From Lysobacterales bacterium (GTDB lineage: Bacteria > Pseudomonadota > Gammaproteobacteria > Xanthomonadales > SZUA-5): a stretch of 64,000 bases of DNA. Below the pieces are notes generated by a model. It was given only the letters and a program-made list of their open reading frames with translations, made no database searches and was not told the DNA's origin. The stretch spans positions 32,001 to 96,000 of the forward strand of contig JALHMH010000005.1 in the NCBI GenBank assembly GCA_022844165.1, read 5' to 3'. Each line of letters opens with the position of its first letter. Position 1 is the first letter of the stretch. The position numbers were made by a program, and so were the translations under genes. Below, one piece after another: positions 20,296-62,678 of the stretch.

Positions 20296-21210
20296 CTACC
20301 AAACCGAACCGTCAAGCCCACCCAATCCGTCGCCCACAATGCCACGGGAGGTGCGCAGCGTGCCGTCGCGGGCGACGCCAATCGCGATCAACCGACCGGC
20401 AGCGAACACCGCTACTGGGTCCGCCTGGACTTGTGTTGGCATCGCCTGCCCGTGCCGAAAGCGAATCGCAGCGGCATCGTCCAGATCGATTCTGGGCAGG
20501 TGCGCAACGCCGGATTCCATGGGCAACAGTAGCGAATCCAGCCGCTCGACGTCGGCTTTTTCGATCTCATCGAGTGTATGCATCGAGTGCGAAACGAACG
20601 GTGCAGCCCAGGTTCGCCGCAGTGTCGCGACATGCGCTCCGCAGCCCAGTGTTTGACCGATATCGTCGACCAGCGAGCGGACATACGTCCCGCTGGAGAC
20701 GTCGCAATCGAGCGTGATCAACGGCAGTTCGAGCACGACGATTTCCAACCGCGAAACTCTGATCGCGCGCGACGGCCTATCAACAATCTCGCCACGGCGC
20801 GCGAGCTCGTACAGGGGTCGACCATTGCGTTTGAGCGCCGAATACATGGGCGGCACCTGCATCTGCGCACCGCGGAAAGCTGTTAGCGTTTGTTCGACAT
20901 CGTCGCGTGTCAGCGCCGGTACCGGCAGCGATTCGACCGCGACGCCTTCGGCATCTAAAGTATCGGTGCGCACGCCGAGACGGACGGTGACTCGATAGCC
21001 CTTGTCGCCCCCGAGCATCAACCCCGCGAGTTTGGTCGCTTCGCCAAAGCAAATCGGCAACAATCCGCTGGCCAGAGGATCGAGTGCGCCTGTGTGCCCA
21101 GCCTTGTCTGCGCGATACACGCGGCGCACGCGTTGCAAAGCGGCGTTGGAGCCAGGCCCTGAGGGCTTATCGAGCAGCAGAATGCCGCTCACGCGGCGCG
21201 CGCCTCGCAT
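20296..21210 (-). CDS. truB: tRNA pseudouridine(55) synthase
   Basis: LLDKPSG, KAGHTGALDPLASG, QVPPMYSALK, SSGTYVRSL. Confidence 0.97.
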   Translation of the reverse strand: MRGARRVSGILLLDKPSGPGSNAALQRVRRVYRADKAGHTGALDPLASGLLPICFGEATKLAGLMLGGDKGYRVTVRLGVRTDTLDAEGVAVESLPVPALTRDDVEQTLTAFRGAQMQVPPMYSALKRNGRPLYELARRGEIVDRPSRAIRVSRLEIVVLELPLITLDCDVSSGTYVRSLVDDIGQTLGCGAHVATLRRTWAAPFVSHSMHTLDEIEKADVERLDSLLLPMESGVAHLPRIDLDDAAAIRFRHGQAMPTQVQADPVAVFAAGRLIAIGVARDGTLRTSRGIVGDGLGGLDGSVW

Positions 21211-21989: not shown

Positions 21990-24596
21990 TTAACCCAACG
22001 TCCGCTGTACTTCAACGCGATCGAAACACTCGATCTGATCGCCGACCTTTACGTCGTTGTACGCTTTCACGGCGATACCGCATTCTGTGCCCATACGCAC
22101 CTCGTCAACGAGATCCTTGAAGCGCCGCAGCGATTCGAGCTCGCCCTCAAAGACCACGACATTGTCGCGCAACACACGAATGGGCTTGTTGCGACGGACG
22201 ACGCCTTCGATCACCATACAACCTGCGACCGAACCGAATTTGCTGGAGCGGAATACGTCGCGCACTTGCGCCAGGCCAATAATCTGCTCGCGCGTCTCGG
22301 TGCCGAGCATGCCGGTCAACGACTTGCGTACGTGGTCGATCGCTTCATAAATGATGCTGTAGTAGTTGATCTCGACGCCGCCCTCCTGGAGCACCTTACG
22401 CGCTTGCGCATCGGCACGGACGTTAAAGCCGATCACGACAGCCTTGCTGGCCACCGCCAAGGTAGCATCGGATTCGGTAATGCCACCGACGCCGGAGGCG
22501 ATGATGTTGACCTTGATCTGATCCGTTGCCAACTTCGTCAAAGATTCGCGCAAGGCTTCGGACGAACCCTGGACGTCCGCCTTGATCAGCAGGTTCAGAG
22601 TTTGCACATCGCCCTGACCCATCTGCGCAAACAGATCGTCGAGTTTCGTGGATTGTTTGGCAAGGCGCACATCTCGACTCTTCAGTTCGCGCGCGGTTGC
22701 AGCATCGCGCGCCGCGCGTTCGTCGGCCACGACCACAAAATCGTCGCCAGCGTTCGGCGTACCTTGCAGACCGATGACCACAGCAGGAATCGATGGGCCC
22801 GCCTCGGCGATCTGGCGACCCGCTTCATCGAACATCGCGCGCACTCGACCCCACTGCATACCAGCGAGCACGACATCGCCCTTGCGCAAGGTACCCGATT
22901 GCACCAACACCGTCGCTACCGAACCGCGGCCCTTTTCCAAGGTCGATTCGACGACAGTCCCACGAGCTCGACCTTTCTCCGGCGCCCTCAGCTCCAAGAC
23001 CTCAGACTGCACCAGAATCGCGTCGAGCAAGTTGTCGATGCCCATGCCGGTTTTTGCCGACACCGGAATGAACTGCACATCGCCACCGTACTCTTCCGGC
23101 ACCACTTCTTGTTGCAATAAGCCTTGTTTGACGCGCTCCGGATCAGCGTCGGTTTTGTCCATTTTGTTGACCGCAACGATGATCGGGACCTTTGCGGCTT
23201 TCGCGTGGTTAATGGCCTCAATCGTTTGCGGCATGACGCCGTCGTCGGCTGCAACTACCAGCACAACAATGTCTGTCACTTTCGCGCCTCGGGCACGCAT
23301 CTGCGTGAACGCAGCGTGGCCGGGCGTATCAAGGAACGTGATGACCCCCTTCTTGGTGTTTACATGGTAAGCGCCAATGTGCTGGGTAATGCCACCCGCT
23401 TCGCCCGATGCCACACGGGTGCGCCGAATATGATCGAGTAAAGAGGTCTTACCATGATCGACGTGACCCATAACGGTTACAACGGGCGGCCGCGTTGTGG
23501 CCTCGCCGGCGCTTGGATCCTGGCTCGTCAACTCGCTCTCAAGGTCACGATCGCCGGCACGTTTGACCGAATGCCCAAGCTCTTCGGTGACCAGCACCGC
23601 GGTGTCGTGATCGATGGTCTGGTTGATTGTGACCATGACGCCCATCTTCATCAACGCCTTGATGACTTCCGGCGCTTTGACTGCCAATTTGGCAGCCAGC
23701 TCGGCAACGATGATCGTCTCACCCACCTCGACTTCGCGAACAACCGGCGCCGTTGGCCGGGAGAAGCCGTGGTCGCGCCCGCTGCCACGTTGCTCGGGTG
23801 CCTTGCCACGCGGCTTCTTCTTGCCGGGGCGTCGTGCACCATCGGCCAGATGTAATTCGCCGCGATTGAAGCTCGGTTCGGTTTCTTCGACAACGGCCTC
23901 ACCGAAGGCACGACCATGCGTGCGTTTTGCGCCCGGAATGGGTTTGTGTCCCCGCGGTTTTTCGTCAGCCAACTCGCGCTTCTTGGGTTTTTCGACGACG
24001 GGCGGTGGCGCTTTGGGTTTTTCCGCCTCCGGTGGACGAATCGCCTCTTCCTCGGCGGCACGCGCGGCTGCCTCGGCGGCCAGTTGCTCGGCCCCCTCGC
24101 GCTCCTCACGCTCGCGGCGACGTTGCTCTTCTAACTCCCGCTGTCGCTCTTCGTCCGCAACTCGCCGCGCTTCGGCATCACGCCGTGCGATGTCTTCCGC
24201 ATCGCGACGGAGTTGCGATTCCGCCAGCAGCTTCTGAGCGTGTTCGCGTTCGGGATCGGCCTCGCCTTGTTCGGCTACGGTGCTGCGTTTAACGTAGGTC
24301 TTCTTTTGCCGCACTTCAACGTTGACGGTCTTCCCGCCGCCTCTGGAACCACCGGGCGACAGTGTAATTTCGCTGACCGTCTTGCGCTTGAGCGTGATCT
24401 GGCTGGGTGCTTTCAAGTCCTCTTTCGCCTTGCCGTGCGAAGCACGCAAATGCTCCAGCAGCTTGACTTTTTCCGCAGCACTGACCTCCTGCTGTACGCC
24501 GGTCACTTTAAGGCCGGCCTCCGCCAGTTGCTCCAGCAGCCGCTCCGGCGAAACGCCGAGCACGGTCGCTAATTTTTCTACGGTGATGCCGGCCAT
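21990..24596 (-). CDS. infB: Translation initiation factor IF-2
   Basis: [45 protein letters not shown]. Confidence 0.99.
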
Positions 24597-24695: not shown

Positions 24696-26186
24696 TCACT
24701 GGTCTGCGAACATTGCAGAGCGCGCGGCCATGATCAACGACCGCGCGCGGTCTTCTGTCATGCCCTCGAACTCCATTAGCTCATCGGTCGCCAAATCCGC
24801 CAGGTCGTCTCGCGTACGGACTCCGCCCGCCGCCAGCGTGTAGGCCATCGCATCATCCATCCCTTCCAAGCCAAGCAGAGATTCGTCCGGCCGGTTCTCG
24901 TCGATCGCTTCTTCCTTGGCGATCAGCTCAGTCAGTAATGCGTCGCGAGCTCGGGCGCGCAACTCTTCAACCAGATCTTCATCGAACTCATCGACGTTCA
25001 GCAACTCGCCAGCTGGCACGTATGCCACTTCTTCGACGGAACTGAAGCCTTCTCGCACCAGGATTGCCGCGATCTCAGCGTCGACCTGCAAACGGTCTTT
25101 GAACAATTCCAGCGTCGCTGCGGATTCGGCCTCGCCCTTTGCGGAGGCCTGCGCCTGGGTCATCACATTCAGCTGCCAACCCGTGAGCTTGCTGGCCAAA
25201 CGCACGTTTTGGCCACCACGGCCGATCGCCTGGCTAAGCTTGTCTTCTGCGACCGCCAGATCCATCGCGTGCTTCTCTTCGTCAACGACGATCGATTGCA
25301 CTTCCGCGGGCGCCATCGCGTTGATCACGAACTGCGCCGGATTGTCGTTCCACAAGACGATGTCGATGCGTTCGCCATTCAGCTCGTTCGAGACCGCCTT
25401 GACGCGCGAACCTTGCATACCAATGCAGGCACCCACCGGATCGGTCCGGTGATCGTTGGCGCGCACCGCGATCTTCGCGCGGTCACCCGGATCGCGCGCT
25501 GCGGCCATCACATTGACAACGCCCTGCCCCACTTCCGGCACTTCGAGCTTAAACAGCTCCATCATGAACTCTGGCGCCGTGCGCGAGATGAACAACTGCG
25601 GACCTCGCGTTTCGCTCTTGACATCGAACAAATACCCGCGCACGCGATCGCCAGTGCGAAAGTTCTCGCGTGGCACCATGCGTTCGCGAAGAATGATGGC
25701 TTCGGCGTTGCCGCCCAAATCCAAGTACACGTGCCCACGTTCCACGCGTTTGACAACGCCGGTCACCAACGTCCCGATTCGATCTTTGAACTGGTCTACA
25801 ACCTGCGCACGTTCGGCTTCGCGCACGCGCTGCACGATGACTTGTTTTGCGGCCTGCGCGGCGATTCGACCAAATTCGGCATTCTCGATTTGTTCTTCGA
25901 CAAACCCGCCAATCTCAATGTTGGGATCGTCCTCGCGGGCCACCGTCAAAGCGGTTTGACGTTCCGGAAATTCGAGCTGCTGATCGTCGGCAATCACTTC
26001 CCAACGACGGAACGTCTCGTAATTGCCGTTCGACCGATTAATGGTCACACGTGTCAAGATGTCGCCGCCGTGTTTACGCTTGGCCGCCGAGGCAAGCGCC
26101 GCTTCCAGCGCGTCAAAAATGACCGCCCGGCTGACGCCTTTTTCATTCGCAACCGCATCGGCGACCAGCAGCATTTCCTTACTCAT
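24696..26186 (-). CDS. nusA: Transcription elongation factor NusA
   Basis: FGRIAAQAAKQV, ARDPGDRAKIAV, DPVGACIG, AIGRGGQNVRLAS. Confidence 0.99.
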   Translation of the reverse strand: MSKEMLLVADAVANEKGVSRAVIFDALEAALASAAKRKHGGDILTRVTINRSNGNYETFRRWEVIADDQQLEFPERQTALTVAREDDPNIEIGGFVEEQIENAEFGRIAAQAAKQVIVQRVREAERAQVVDQFKDRIGTLVTGVVKRVERGHVYLDLGGNAEAIILRERMVPRENFRTGDRVRGYLFDVKSETRGPQLFISRTAPEFMMELFKLEVPEVGQGVVNVMAAARDPGDRAKIAVRANDHRTDPVGACIGMQGSRVKAVSNELNGERIDIVLWNDNPAQFVINAMAPAEVQSIVVDEEKHAMDLAVAEDKLSQAIGRGGQNVRLASKLTGWQLNVMTQAQASAKGEAESAATLELFKDRLQVDAEIAAILVREGFSSVEEVAYVPAGELLNVDEFDEDLVEELRARARDALLTELIAKEEAIDENRPDESLLGLEGMDDAMAYTLAAGGVRTRDDLADLATDELMEFEGMTEDRARSLIMAARSAMFADQ

Positions 26187-26679
26187 CGGACTTTCCTTTA
26201 GCTTTTCTCGGCTTCATCGCCGTTTCGAACTGCGGCACAAGCCGCGCTTTGTCGATATCGCCATGACGCAACGACACTTCAACCCCGTCGACGGCGAGCG
26301 TGATGCCCGAATCATCGGCGGCTTTCAGCGCGCCCTGAAACTTGCGGCGATTGTTGATCGGCGCGAGCGACTGCACGCGCAAAACTTCGCCAATAAATCG
26401 CTGGTATTGCGACGGCGCGAAAATCGGCCGATCGATGCCCGGCGAGGATACTTCCAGCGTGTAGTTACCGCTAATCGGATCGTTCACATCCAGCAGCGCC
26501 GAAATCTCGCGGCTGGCCGCCTCGCAGTCCTCCAAAGTCACCGGACGCCCAGGATGATCGATATAGACGCGCAACAGCCCACGCGATCGCGATAACGCCA
26601 GTTCCAAACCCCATAAATCCAGACCCAAGGAGCCGATGGCGGGCGCCAGCAACGCTTGCAGTTGGTCCTTCTTTGCCAT
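26179..26679 (-). CDS. rimP: Ribosome maturation factor RimP
   Basis: LRVYID, LEDCE, YTLEVSSPGIDRP. Start reassigned to ATG 26679 because the longer ORF crosses the leader terminator. Confidence 0.96.
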   Translation of the reverse strand: MAKKDQLQALLAPAIGSLGLDLWGLELALSRSRGLLRVYIDHPGRPVTLEDCEAASREISALLDVNDPISGNYTLEVSSPGIDRPIFAPSQYQRFIGEVLRVQSLAPINNRRKFQGALKAADDSGITLAVDGVEVSLRHGDIDKARLVPQFETAMKPRKAKGKSDE

Positions 26680-26715
26680 AGGCCGATGGTCTTTACCAAA
26701 ATTATTGCGGGCAAC

Positions 26716-26738
26716 AAAAAAGCCTCCGAAGAGGCTTT
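26716..26738 (-). terminator. rimP leader terminator/attenuator
   Basis: AAAGCCUC-UUCG-GAGGCUUUUUU about 37 nt upstream of the rimP start; a terminator in this position is established for the rimP-nusA operon. Confidence 0.85.
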
Positions 26739-26930
26739 CTGACGAAAACCAGTGGAACCGAGCTCTAAAGCATGAGGCGGTTAACCACACAAGGCCCCGA
26801 AGGATAACCTCAGAGATCCCATAGAGCAAGGGACAACGCCTAAGCTTGGGTCAGGTCGCGCTGGAGTCCTTGACGGAGCCGGAACTTGTCATTTGAGTCA
26901 AATTTTCGTCGGAGCTGCTTTGGCAGTTGA
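26738..26930. ncRNA. Unidentified structured RNA or non-autonomous inserted element
   Basis: Terminal pairing TCTGACGAAAA (26738-26748) with TTTTCGTCGGA (26903-26913), several internal helices, about 53% GC by hand count; a gene reading frame is disrupted at its edge. Confidence 0.4.
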
Positions 26931-27244
26931 AGCCCCCTTGAGGGCGGCTCGACGCGGATCAGCACCGGGAAGTCCGTTGGTACCGTGACGTCCAGACCCG
27001 GGAGCCGCGGCTGAATCGCTGCTGGGCTGATGATGAAGGCGTCAATCCCAAGGTTCTCCACGCTCAGGTTCTCTGGCGACGAGAACTCCAGCCGCAAAGT
27101 CGCGGTGTAGGTGGGCACGGCTACACTCGGCAGCGCGATCTCGGCCGTCGCGACGTTTCCAACAATGGTGACTGAAACATCGGCCGGCGCGTTTGCCGCG
27201 TAGAGCGCTAGCGCGGCGATGGCGATTCGAGTGGCAAGAGGCAT
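26840..27244 (-). pseudogene. Truncated secreted protein (DUF6689-like N-terminal half)
   Basis: Signal peptide, then DVSVTIVGN...ENLSVENLGI...RLPG...FPVLIRVEPP as recalled for this family; after EPPSRG the sequence loses protein-like character and stops within about 30 codons. Confidence 0.55.
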
Positions 27245-27420
27245 GATCGTTACGGAGCTCAGTAGTAAGGTGGTGGCGCACAACTGACGACATCAAGACT
27301 CGGCCCCTTCCCTGGGGCCGCGTTCTTTGCGGTAGATGCCTCCAACTTCGCCGACGCGAGCCCGACCAGGCGCTTGCGGGCCATTGATGCTCCTGGCGCA
27401 ACGGCCAAAAATGCCACCTG

Positions 27421-27434
27421 TTGATTCAAGTCAA
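27421..27434. promoter_or_regulatory. FNR/Anr box upstream of hemN
   Basis: TTGAT-TCAA-GTCAA matches TTGAT-N4-ATCAA at 9/10 and lies about 60 bp before hemN, a classic FNR/Anr target. Confidence 0.8.
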
Positions 27435-27492
27435 TGGCGAAGATGACGAACCGACCTAAGGTTCGACTCCGACGACAAAACGCCACGGCCCC

Positions 27493-28890
27493 ATGGTCCA
27501 GCCTCTCTTCAGCGCCGATCTATTGCGACGATACGATCAGTCTGGTCCTCGCTATACGTCTTACCCCACCGCACCGACATTCCAGCCGGACTTCGGCGAA
27601 GACGATCTGCGCCAGCAGGCAATGCGCAGCAATGCCGATCTGATACCGCGTTCGCTGTCGGTGTATGTGCACATCCCATTTTGCTTCAACCCCTGCTTTT
27701 ACTGCGGCTGCAACCGAATCGTGACGCGCGACACGGCCCGAGGCGAGCGCTATGTAGAGCGCCTTGAACGCGAGATCGAGTTGATTTCGCCGCTATTTGA
27801 CCGCGACCGGGATGTCGTGCAATTGCACTTTGGCGGCGGGACACCCAACTTTCTGTCGTCACAGTTGCTGCTTCGCATCGTCGCAAGCCTGCAACGCAAC
27901 TTCCAACTCAGCCAAACCACGTCGCGCGATTTCTCGATCGAACTGGACCCGCGGTCCGTTGTCACCGACGACATTCCGGCGTTGGTTGCAGCTGGACTAA
28001 ATCGCGCGAGTCTTGGTATCCAGGACTTCGATCCAGAAGTACAACTCGCTGTCAATCGCGTTCAGGACGAAACGCACACCCTGTCGATCATCGATGCCTG
28101 CCGGCAGGCGGGCATGCGCTCGGTGAACGTCGATCTCATTTACGGATTGCCGAAACAAACCCAAGACGGCTTCTCAAGAACCCTGGCGAGCGTCCTGTCA
28201 GCGCGCCCGGATCGTATCGCGTTGTACGGTTACGCCCATATGCCTCAGCTCTTCCGTGCACAAAGGCAGATTGAAGACAGCGCGCTGCCGAGCGCCGATG
28301 CCAAGCTCAACTTGCTGCAGCTTGCGATCGATCGGCTGACAACCGCAGGTTATCAGTACATCGGAATGGACCACTTTGCGTTACCCACCGACGAATTGGC
28401 ACTGGCTCAACAACGCGGTGCACTGCATCGCAACTTCATGGGTTACACCACGCATGCCGAATGCGACTTGATCGGGTTGGGCGTGAGCGCGATCAGCCAT
28501 ATTGGCGACAGTTTCAGCCAAAGCGTCCGCGAACTGCCCGCCTGGGAATCAGCCATCGATTCGGGCAGGTTGCCCGTATGGCGCGGCCTGGCGCTGACCG
28601 AGGACGATCTTTTGCGCAACGCTGTCATCCAATCGCTGATGTGTCACAGCCGCATCGACATTCGCCACATCGAGCAGCGTTTTAAGATCAACTTTGGAGC
28701 CTACTTCGACTCGTCGCTCGCGCAACTGACCGCGTTGCAGGAAGATCATCTGGTTGCTGTCGACGCCGAGCACATTGAAGTTCCCGTTCGCGGGCGAATG
28801 CTGCTGCGCCGAGTGGCGATGTGCTTCGATCGGTATCTCGACCCCACTTTTGCATCGAGCACCTCAGCGCGGTATTCCCGGGTGATCTGA
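27493..28890 (+). CDS. hemN: Oxygen-independent coproporphyrinogen III oxidase
   Basis: GPRYTSYPTA, YVHIPFCFNPCFYCGC (radical SAM), HFGGGTP, IGMDHFA, LHRNFMGY. Confidence 0.97.
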   Translation: MVQPLFSADLLRRYDQSGPRYTSYPTAPTFQPDFGEDDLRQQAMRSNADLIPRSLSVYVHIPFCFNPCFYCGCNRIVTRDTARGERYVERLEREIELISPLFDRDRDVVQLHFGGGTPNFLSSQLLLRIVASLQRNFQLSQTTSRDFSIELDPRSVVTDDIPALVAAGLNRASLGIQDFDPEVQLAVNRVQDETHTLSIIDACRQAGMRSVNVDLIYGLPKQTQDGFSRTLASVLSARPDRIALYGYAHMPQLFRAQRQIEDSALPSADAKLNLLQLAIDRLTTAGYQYIGMDHFALPTDELALAQQRGALHRNFMGYTTHAECDLIGLGVSAISHIGDSFSQSVRELPAWESAIDSGRLPVWRGLALTEDDLLRNAVIQSLMCHSRIDIRHIEQRFKINFGAYFDSSLAQLTALQEDHLVAVDAEHIEVPVRGRMLLRRVAMCFDRYLDPTFASSTSARYSRVI

Positions 28891-62355: not shown

Positions 62356-62678
62356 TCCCGTGCGCCGCTCAATTGCGGCGATGGGCAATCAAAGTACCCG
62401 GCGGATCGCGAGTTTATCGATCGAGTCAGTCTTCTCCAAAGCGGCTTTGGCTGTTACGGCCAAAGCCCGCATTACGTGAAGAAGCTGGACGTACACGCTT
62501 TGAGCAGCGACCACAGAATCCGGCCACCGCTCCAATTGGCGTGGCTAGCCTGTCATTGGGCGCATCAACGCTTCCCGGCGAGACCGATTTCAACGCAGAG
62601 TTGTTCAACCGTGGGCGGCGCCATGTCGATCCAGGCACCGAACTGCGTGTTGATTCGAACTCCACAAGGCCACGACCG

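Follow-up and report, generated by a model that had tools for sequence, protein, structure and literature searches.

We analyzed the region upstream of rimP in a 64-kb stretch of DNA from a Lysobacterales bacterium (assembly GCA_022844165.1); we call the whole stretch the window. The interval of interest, 26738-26930, occupies the position upstream of rimP, and beyond it are an open reading frame (26840-27283, minus strand) and then hemN. We read the interval on the minus strand, which is the rimP-sense strand. An earlier reading of the DNA, made without database searches (the sequence-only reading), had taken the interval to be a single foreign-looking structured element of about 190 nt. Instead, it is three unrelated pieces that lie side by side: the left third is ancestral and conserved, the middle is specific to the genus, and the right 84 nt belong to a dispersed repeat (Table 1).

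The three pieces have separate histories, as can be seen by comparing the interval to its own genome (G000), to a genus-mate (G001), and to sets of 25 genomes from the family and 149 genomes from the order. When we searched the window's own genome with 26700-26940, only the part from about 26856 to 26940 was repeated, and it was present in dozens of copies. When we searched relatives with 26600-27300, the genus-mate matched 26600-26830 at 79%, and then the homology ended. Eight genomes of other genera matched just a 48-nt block (26708-26755), and a family-wide search added two more. In all, this block is found in ten genomes from four other genera, where it is 92-96% identical and lies downstream of metY, the initiator tRNA gene. 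As for base composition, the sequence-only reading had estimated about 53% GC and thought that CpG steps were scarce, which is correct: the interval is 52.8% GC, and its observed/expected ratio for CpG is 0.82 versus 1.34 for the window.

Table 1. Features at and around the rimP upstream region, in window coordinates
Feature	Position	Strand	Remarks
Intrinsic terminator	26716-26738	-	Stem GCCUC (26735-31) / GAGGC (26726-22), loop UUCG, flanking AAA/UUU, U6 tract at 26721-16
Conserved linker CCACUGGUUUUCGUCAG	26739-26755	-	In alignments to relatives, this stretch begins with the CCA at the 3' end of the tRNA
Conserved segment	26756-26830	-	Located where relatives have the body of the metY tRNA; contains P1 and the promoter-like motif; occurs once in the genome
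Hairpin P1	26752-26788	-	GUGG-UU-AACCG-C-CUC, 8-nt loop, GAG-CU-CGGUU-CCAC; 12 base pairs
Promoter-like motif	26801-26829	-	TTGCTC (26829-24), 17-nt spacer, TATCCT (26806-01)
Unique linker	26831-26858		Between the conserved segment and the repeat; homology to the genus-mate ends at 26830, and repeat matches begin at 26856-26866
Repeat module A	26859-26942	+	Corresponds to positions ~2-85 in the unit of a mosaic repeat of ~240 nt; this copy lacks modules B and C
DUF6689 5' fragment	26943-27244	-	Signal-peptide-like start and ~100 residues; PF20396, E 1.1e-16
Presumed FNR/Anr-type box TTGATTCAAGTCAA	27421-27434	+	hemN starts 59 nt further on; a single match in the window versus 0.22 expected by chance
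rimP	26179-26679	-	First gene of rimP-nusA-infB; ATG at 26679; Pfam RimP_N, E 5.5e-25; RimP C-terminal domain, E 7.2e-16
nusA	24696-26186	-	From the list of open reading frames
infB	21990-24596	-	From the list of open reading frames
hemN	27493-28890	+	From the list of open reading frames

The missing initiator tRNA

The sequence-only reading had pointed out that a metY-type tRNA would be expected at this position and that none is present. Both points hold. ARAGORN found no tRNAs in the 64-kb window. Of the 25 family genomes, 24 gave a match to RimP, and at 20 of these 24 loci, ARAGORN identified a tRNA-Met(CAT) upstream of rimP. Two of the four loci that lack the tRNA (L050 and L054) are uninformative, because their contigs end only about 200-230 nt upstream. 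That leaves the loci of the window's genome and of its genus-mate.

What is left at the site is the sequence that follows the tRNA in relatives. There, the linker and terminator seen in the window come after the CCA of the tRNA. In the other genera, the 48-nt block opens with the CCA end of the initiator tRNA and continues with the linker, the hairpin GCCTC-TTCG-GAGGC, and a run of six Ts, and then comes rimP. From the CCA through the terminator and slightly past it, 50 of 50 positions are identical between the window and the genus-mate. The terminator itself is 100% identical, its stem is paired in all of the folds, and it lies 36 nt upstream of the ATG of rimP. (A simple terminator scan did not list it, presumably because the scan lets the stem run on into the U tract.) The sequence-only reading had described the hairpin at the left edge of the interval as the terminator of rimP, but on the rimP-sense strand, the hairpin is upstream of rimP. 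In three other genera (g4-g6; loci L047-L049, L051-L053, and L055-L058), there are two terminators between metY and rimP. The second of these has the form GGGCC-tag(t/c)-GCCC, followed by a run of Ts, and fits the published signature of the rimP leader. Genera other than g4-g6 have a single terminator, as the window does.

The tRNA gene is found elsewhere in both genomes of the genus. A search for the 77-nt tRNA gave a match in 23 of the 25 family genomes, with one match in each of 22 genomes and two in the remaining one. In the window's genome, the initiator tRNA lies on another contig (C20:51270-51346), it has its own promoter (CTTGCG-N17-TAAAGT), and it is the only one that was found. In the genus-mate, the initiator tRNA is 1.8 kb from rimP, on the other side of hemN and convergent with it (L062; G001:C3, ~21020-21096). 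The two tRNA sites share just 125 nt, which comprise the promoter and the tRNA, and both flanks differ. Given the comparisons of synteny and of tRNA sites, we conclude that in this genus the only detected initiator tRNA and its promoter have been separated from rimP-nusA-infB, while the terminator was left behind. We also note that in the genus-mate, the tRNA is followed by a new strong terminator, and that upstream are an acyl-CoA dehydrogenase-like gene and another that is rpoH-like. In the window's genome, a fragment of the last module of the dispersed repeat lies 85 nt upstream of the relocated tRNA (C20:51431-51482). This is consistent with a repeat-associated rearrangement, but it is not proof of one.

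The repeat module and the truncated DUF6689 gene

When we compared 26830-26970 to its own genome with BLAST, there were 154 hits, or 153 besides the window's copy, with modal ends at 26859-26864 and at 26942. Other copies exist for the right part of the interval only. By extending the alignments into the flanks, we obtained a consensus unit of about 240 nt with CTAG at both ends, where the CTAG may belong to the unit or to its target. A profile search for this unit with nhmmer gave 274 hits that cover 40,046 nt, or 0.86% of the genome. Of these hits, 122 span the unit; their lengths group around two sizes, about 230-250 nt and about 160-180 nt. The window's copy aligns well to the profile only up to CCCCCTTGAG (26942) and poorly past it. 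Another match to the profile in the window, at 62404-62461, is short and weak (positions 16-74, 23 bits).

The 274 hits form 229 clusters, of which 191 are mostly outside of proxy genes, as judged by crude gene calls that are based on the GC content of third codon positions, and there are 38 adjacent pairs on the same strand. Relative to the neighboring genes, the orientation of the repeat is unbiased (57 in the same direction and 44 opposite). The central module also occurs alone, including in a tandem array of 10 at G000:C45:18225-18986 (positions ~96-162). Among the 149 genomes from the order, four have a match, including the window's own. Besides that genome, the full-length repeat is present only in the genus-mate (~80% identity), and the other two genomes, which are from other genera (G003 and G016), match the central module alone.

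The sequence-only reading had offered an insertion resembling a miniature inverted-repeat transposable element (MITE) as one explanation for the interval. This was right insofar as 26859-26942 has 153 other hits in the genome, but the piece in the window is just one 84-nt module of the 240-nt unit, and nothing in the genome matched TnpB. In the one full copy that we tested for terminal inverted repeats, there were none: it has two internal hairpins and a third pair with one arm in the flank, and no pairing joins the ends. Rfam gave nothing credible for one full copy of the repeat. A consensus fold of 55 full-length copies has few predicted pairs, with at most three double changes at any pair, and folds of single copies have z scores of -1.71 and -2.99. 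As for an autonomous partner, no left and right halves lie 300-6000 nt apart among the 274 hits, and a search for TnpB gave no match (IS110, reverse transcriptase, and other transposase families were not searched for). The genome's single Y1 (RAYT-type) transposase gene (L069; G000:C48:21393-21728) is flanked on both sides by another palindrome, CCCAGGGC....GCCCTGGG, which is a separate REP-type family, and the 240-nt unit has no match on the contig that carries this gene.

Known mosaic intergenic repeats and MITEs include REP/BIME clusters, ERIC-type elements, and Correia-type MITEs. The 240-nt repeat is like these in that it is small (160-250 nt), non-coding, hairpin-rich, mostly intergenic, present in hundreds of copies, and confined to one lineage, and in that its modules also occur alone or in tandem. 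Unlike MITEs, it has no terminal inverted repeats in the one full copy tested, and no autonomous partner was found; unlike REP/BIME, it does not flank the one Y1 gene in the genome. The window's copy of module A is probably an inert instance of a repeat that litters the intergenic DNA of this genus, and it would mark a rearrangement that left the first ~40% of a DUF6689 gene.

The gene is truncated and its family match is lost at the right edge of the interval, as the sequence-only reading had said. In the frame 26840-27283 (minus strand), residues 22-120 match positions 13-114 of the 275 positions in the profile for PF20396, and the last ~34 residues and the stop codon (26840-26842) are encoded by the repeat and the unique linker. 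When the frame is aligned to the full-length homolog from a relative, the similarity fades after the residues VEPP, at around residue 114, which is exactly where the repeat module starts on this strand. This fragment is the sole match to DUF6689 in its genome. The genus-mate has none, and of three other relatives that we searched, two have full-length genes elsewhere.

Compared to the genus-mate, the window has about 590 extra bases (26831-27419), which comprise the unique linker, the repeat module, the gene fragment, and the DNA upstream of that fragment. Homology to the genus-mate resumes at a box before hemN, which we take to be of the FNR/Anr type. The 17 nt at this box are 94% identical to the sequence upstream of hemN in the genus-mate and are the only conserved part of that spacer. 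The box suggests that hemN may be under oxygen-dependent control.

The segment in place of the tRNA

The middle piece, 26756-26830, finds no counterpart in the 23 remaining genomes of the family, where matches are limited to the terminator block. When it is aligned to the genus-mate, 58 of 77 columns are identical (75%). By comparison, at four-fold degenerate sites, the two genomes are identical at 38 of 72 sites in rimP, 88 of 178 in nusA, and 67 of 156 in hemN (43-53%). Because the segment is more similar than these sites are, and because the rest of the spacer is dissimilar, we conclude that it is under purifying selection, with the constraint tied to the rimP side. The distance from the segment to the hemN box is about 20 nt in the genus-mate and about 590 nt in the window.

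Two features stand out within the segment. First, the promoter-like motif is present in the genus-mate as TTGCTC-N17-TATGCT, and its layout, CTTGC-N17-TA...T, is that of the metY promoters of relatives. Second, the hairpin P1 is the minimum-energy fold in both genomes and also the consensus structure. All seven differences between the two genomes in this region fall within the 14 unpaired columns of P1 and none fall within the 24 paired columns (hypergeometric probability ~3e-4, although these two sequences had also served to select the structure).

We think that 26756-26830 is probably the present promoter and leader of rimP-nusA-infB, and that it feeds an attenuator of the rimP-leader type. 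Under this interpretation, the segment would have come to occupy the slot of the tRNA body when, in this genus, the tRNA came to lie elsewhere together with its promoter. Transcription would start near 26795 from a weak promoter (TTGCTC-N17-TATCCT), and the leader of about 80 nt would fold into P1 (26788-26752) and then the terminator. A share of the polymerases would stop at the U6 tract, and the remainder would continue into rimP-nusA-infB. The ancestral terminator and linker (26716-26755) would thus still serve as a leader attenuator, at which transcription either stops or reads through into rimP. NusA would be the likely modulator of termination, as has been proposed for rimP leaders in general. 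The comparisons show the separate histories of the pieces, the absence of the tRNA from the site, the truncation, the repeat family, and the conservation; we infer the promoter, the transcript ends, the attenuation, and the role of NusA. Taken as a whole, this account has an old metY terminator and linker acting as an attenuator of rimP, a genus-specific promoter and leader, and an inert repeat module that marks the truncation of the DUF6689 gene, and we would give it a probability of about 70%. A cis-regulatory leader of rimP-nusA-infB had been among the suggestions of the sequence-only reading; this is the most likely role for the left part of the interval, but not for all 190 nt.

It is useful to compare the locus to better-known systems. 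According to the portions of the work on E. coli that we draw on (PMC6511841), E. coli's metY-nusA-infB operon has promoters P-1 and P0 before metY and P2 after it, terminators t1 and t2 before rimP, RNase III sites, and autoregulation by NusA. Relative to that description, the locus in the window has the same order of rimP, nusA, and infB, and the ancestor of the family had an initiator tRNA upstream, followed by one or more terminators. The operon in the window would need an internal promoter comparable to P2. It differs in that the tRNA is gone from the site, there is one terminator rather than two, and there is no long duplex of the RNase III type. Another difference is that metY is apparently the only initiator tRNA gene in this family, as opposed to a minor extra copy in E. 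coli.

The terminator-type rimP leader has been described as the most widespread attenuator, with a location 4-130 nt from the start of the gene, and NusA was proposed as the factor involved (Naville and Gautheret 2010, PMC2965389). As far as the relevant parts of that paper go, the terminator in the window is similar: it is a Rho-independent hairpin with a U stretch on the 5' side of rimP-nusA-infB, its distance from the start (36 nt) is within this range, and there is no riboswitch-like domain. Also, with a 5' arm rich in C and a 3' arm rich in G, it resembles the upstream “inverse” terminator of some Gammaproteobacteria that is described there (PMC2965389).

Several observations weigh against our interpretation. 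The promoter-like motif fails a scan for the sigma-70 consensus in both genomes (we count agreement with the consensus at 3 of the 6 positions at -35 and at 4 of the 6 at -10), and a promoter scan of 26500-27600 found no sigma-70-like site on the minus strand. P1 is no more stable than shuffled sequences (z -1.05, with 26 of 200 shuffles as good, and z -0.23, with 75 of 200), and compensatory changes are seen in 0 of the 27 predicted consensus pairs. The comparison involves two independent lineages only, as a scan of metagenomes gave one locus, which is near-identical to the genus-mate. The conserved arms of P1 could equally be explained as an inverted repeat in DNA that is bound by a protein. 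The stem GCCUC/GAGGC does not have the signature of the rimP leader as given in the parts of the description that we draw on, which is GGGc...gCCC, with a G-rich 5' arm and a C-rich 3' arm (PMC2965389). That signature is found instead in the second terminator of g4-g6 (GGGCCuagyGCCC), and the locus matches no Rfam model.

Two more cautions concern the assemblies. The count of initiator tRNAs is from draft assemblies, which may collapse identical genes, and by “only” we mean that only one was found. The sequence-only reading had raised a chimeric assembly as a way for its proposal to fail, and this is not what we see: both junctions of the repeat are bridged by contigs of a public run with zero differences from the window (26797-26914, across the left junction, and 26886-27339, across the right junction), and another contig, also with zero differences, spans 26426-26819. 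Four DNA runs cover parts of the stretch, and no single contig runs across 26400-27600. Because the runs are all from one study, and possibly from the source sample of the assembly, the contigs are not independent support.

Alternatives and implications

Might the segment and the terminator together (about 26795-26716, minus strand) be the gene for a free-standing, trans-acting small RNA of about 80 nt, instead of a leader for rimP? This would fit with the promoter-like motif, the conserved hairpin, and the strong terminator with its U6 tract, and such an RNA would occupy the slot where relatives make another stable small RNA, the tRNA. Rfam gives a faint hint in the same direction. At the gathering score, there are no matches in the whole window, and at E values of up to 10, there are only sub-threshold matches in 26500-27300. 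The best of these is a weak, full-length match to rsmX (23.3 bits, E 0.042), but this is far under the gathering score of 56, and most of the score is carried by the terminator. (Rfam includes a family for the rimP leader, and no match of the rimP type was seen in this search.) Furthermore, the putative small RNA has no other copy in the genome and no homolog outside the genus. Because rimP starts 36 nt after the U tract and no better promoter was found in between, read-through into rimP seems necessary. A trans-acting RNA could also be a leader, as these roles are not mutually exclusive. Overall, we consider it unlikely that this is a small RNA gene and not the leader of rimP.

The segment could also be a decaying and functionless pseudogene of metY, in which case the operon would be driven from further upstream, for instance from the promoter of the DUF6689 fragment, which is on the same strand as rimP. 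The segment is in exactly the right place for this, between the positions of the metY promoter and of the CCA in relatives, and it ends with GGTTCCA where relatives have GCTACCA. But when we aligned it locally to the promoter-to-CCA sequences of relatives, 397-490 of 500 shuffles were as good in five of six comparisons, and 122 of 500 were as good in the sixth. If one long gap was allowed, then 745 of 1000 and 397 of 1000 shuffles were as good. ARAGORN did not find a tRNA here, and neither did Rfam at E values of up to 10. The segment does not seem to be decaying freely, because it is 75% identical to the genus-mate as compared to 43-53% at four-fold sites, and the genus-mate has retained the segment even though it has no DUF6689 gene. 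The idea that the segment is a pseudogene seems quite improbable to us.

A more speculative possibility builds on the leader interpretation. The 12 base pairs of P1 are the same length as the minihelix that is formed by the acceptor stem and T arm of a tRNA, and P1 lies directly before the linker ...CCAC-UGGUUUUCG. P1 might be a stand-in for the tRNA minihelix that was kept after the sole initiator tRNA left the operon. If so, the RNases that once released metY (RNase P, RNase E, or those for 3' trimming) might still cut the leader and thereby set the 5' end and the stability of the rimP-nusA-infB mRNA. This mRNA would then depend on a tRNA-shaped processing signal that has outlived the tRNA itself. 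We have little faith in this scenario.

The other alternatives depend on the fold of the interval. All of the pairings that the sequence-only reading listed do exist: GCTCTA (26762-67) with TAGAGC (26822-27), TCCC (26817-20) with GGGA (26830-33), TGAGGCGGTTA (26773-83) with TAACCTCA (26805-12), CCUUCGGGG on the minus strand, GTCAGG (26850-55) with CCTTGAC (26868-74), and AGCTGC (26913-18) with GCAGTT (26923-28). The 11-bp pairing of 26738-48 with 26903-13, which was proposed to close the structure, is also present, and it is in the minimum-energy fold of both strands. The fold of 26700-26935 is moderately better than those of shuffled sequences (on the minus strand, z is -2.26 and 2 of 200 shuffles do as well; on the plus strand, z is -2.63 and 1 of 200 does); P1 alone does not stand out.

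The closing helix has one arm in the ancestral linker, within a block that is conserved across five genera, and the other arm in the repeat, for which the genome has 274 hits. Between the leader block and the repeat, the longest helix has 12 pairs if G-U is allowed, and 24 of 1000 shuffles of the repeat piece reach this length. Of 140 other copies of the module, 26 would pair with the leader block over at least 11 bp. The repeat (plus strand, 26903-26913) and the linker (minus strand, 26739-26750) have a word in common, TTTTCGTC, and because of this they pair in opposite orientation. They probably share this word by chance. The genus-mate has the same leader but no repeat there, so it cannot form the closing helix. 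The alignment shows that the genus-mate has lost two pairs of GCTCTA/TAGAGC, the outer ones, and all of the TCCC/GGGA pairing, so the proposed H-type pseudoknot is not conserved. Compensatory changes are also missing from the consensus pairs of the leader, and there are almost none among the 55 full repeat copies. Because the arms of the helix have different histories, because some shuffled sequences and some other copies pair in the same way, and because the genus-mate lacks the repeat, we view the 190-nt fold as a by-product of juxtaposition.

In principle, the repeat module could have acquired a function at this site. For example, it might alter termination by pairing with the linker upstream of the terminator, or it might contain a promoter for rimP. 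The 12 contiguous pairs are indeed with the stretch just 5' of the terminator, and few shuffles do as well, but the genus-mate lacks the module, although its leader is otherwise the same. The promoter scan found no site on the minus strand, and across the genome, the repeat shows no bias in orientation (57 versus 44) and almost no compensatory change among copies. A function for the module at this site is very unlikely. Finally, it is scarcely credible that the interval is one foreign structured noncoding RNA or RNA-guided mobile element: the closing helix is longer than in most shuffles and the fold has favorable z scores, but the genus-mate already contradicts this idea, as it keeps the left part without the repeat, and we found no match in Rfam, no match to TnpB, and no copies that are split around an open reading frame.

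The locus is, then, a composite of known kinds of elements: a probable attenuator upstream of rimP that metY left behind, a leader segment that is specific to the genus, and, next to the remnant of a gene, part of a mosaic repeat that is lineage-specific. This removes a false lead, in that there is no new class of 190-nt RNA at this locus. The repeat, at about 240 nt and about 0.9% of the genome, is specific to the lineage and adjoins both the site by rimP and the relocated tRNA, and it bears on the annotation and the rearrangement of uncultured Xanthomonadales-like genomes.

Of what remains, the most interesting is that the single detected initiator tRNA became uncoupled from the operon that encodes IF2. 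The lineage offers a clear example: its only detected initiator tRNA gene has been separated from rimP-nusA-infB, while the terminator is unchanged and a new conserved leader segment stands in the tRNA's place. That the terminator was kept after the tRNA was lost lends support to the idea that the terminator ahead of rimP does not just end a tRNA gene but is a regulatory attenuator.

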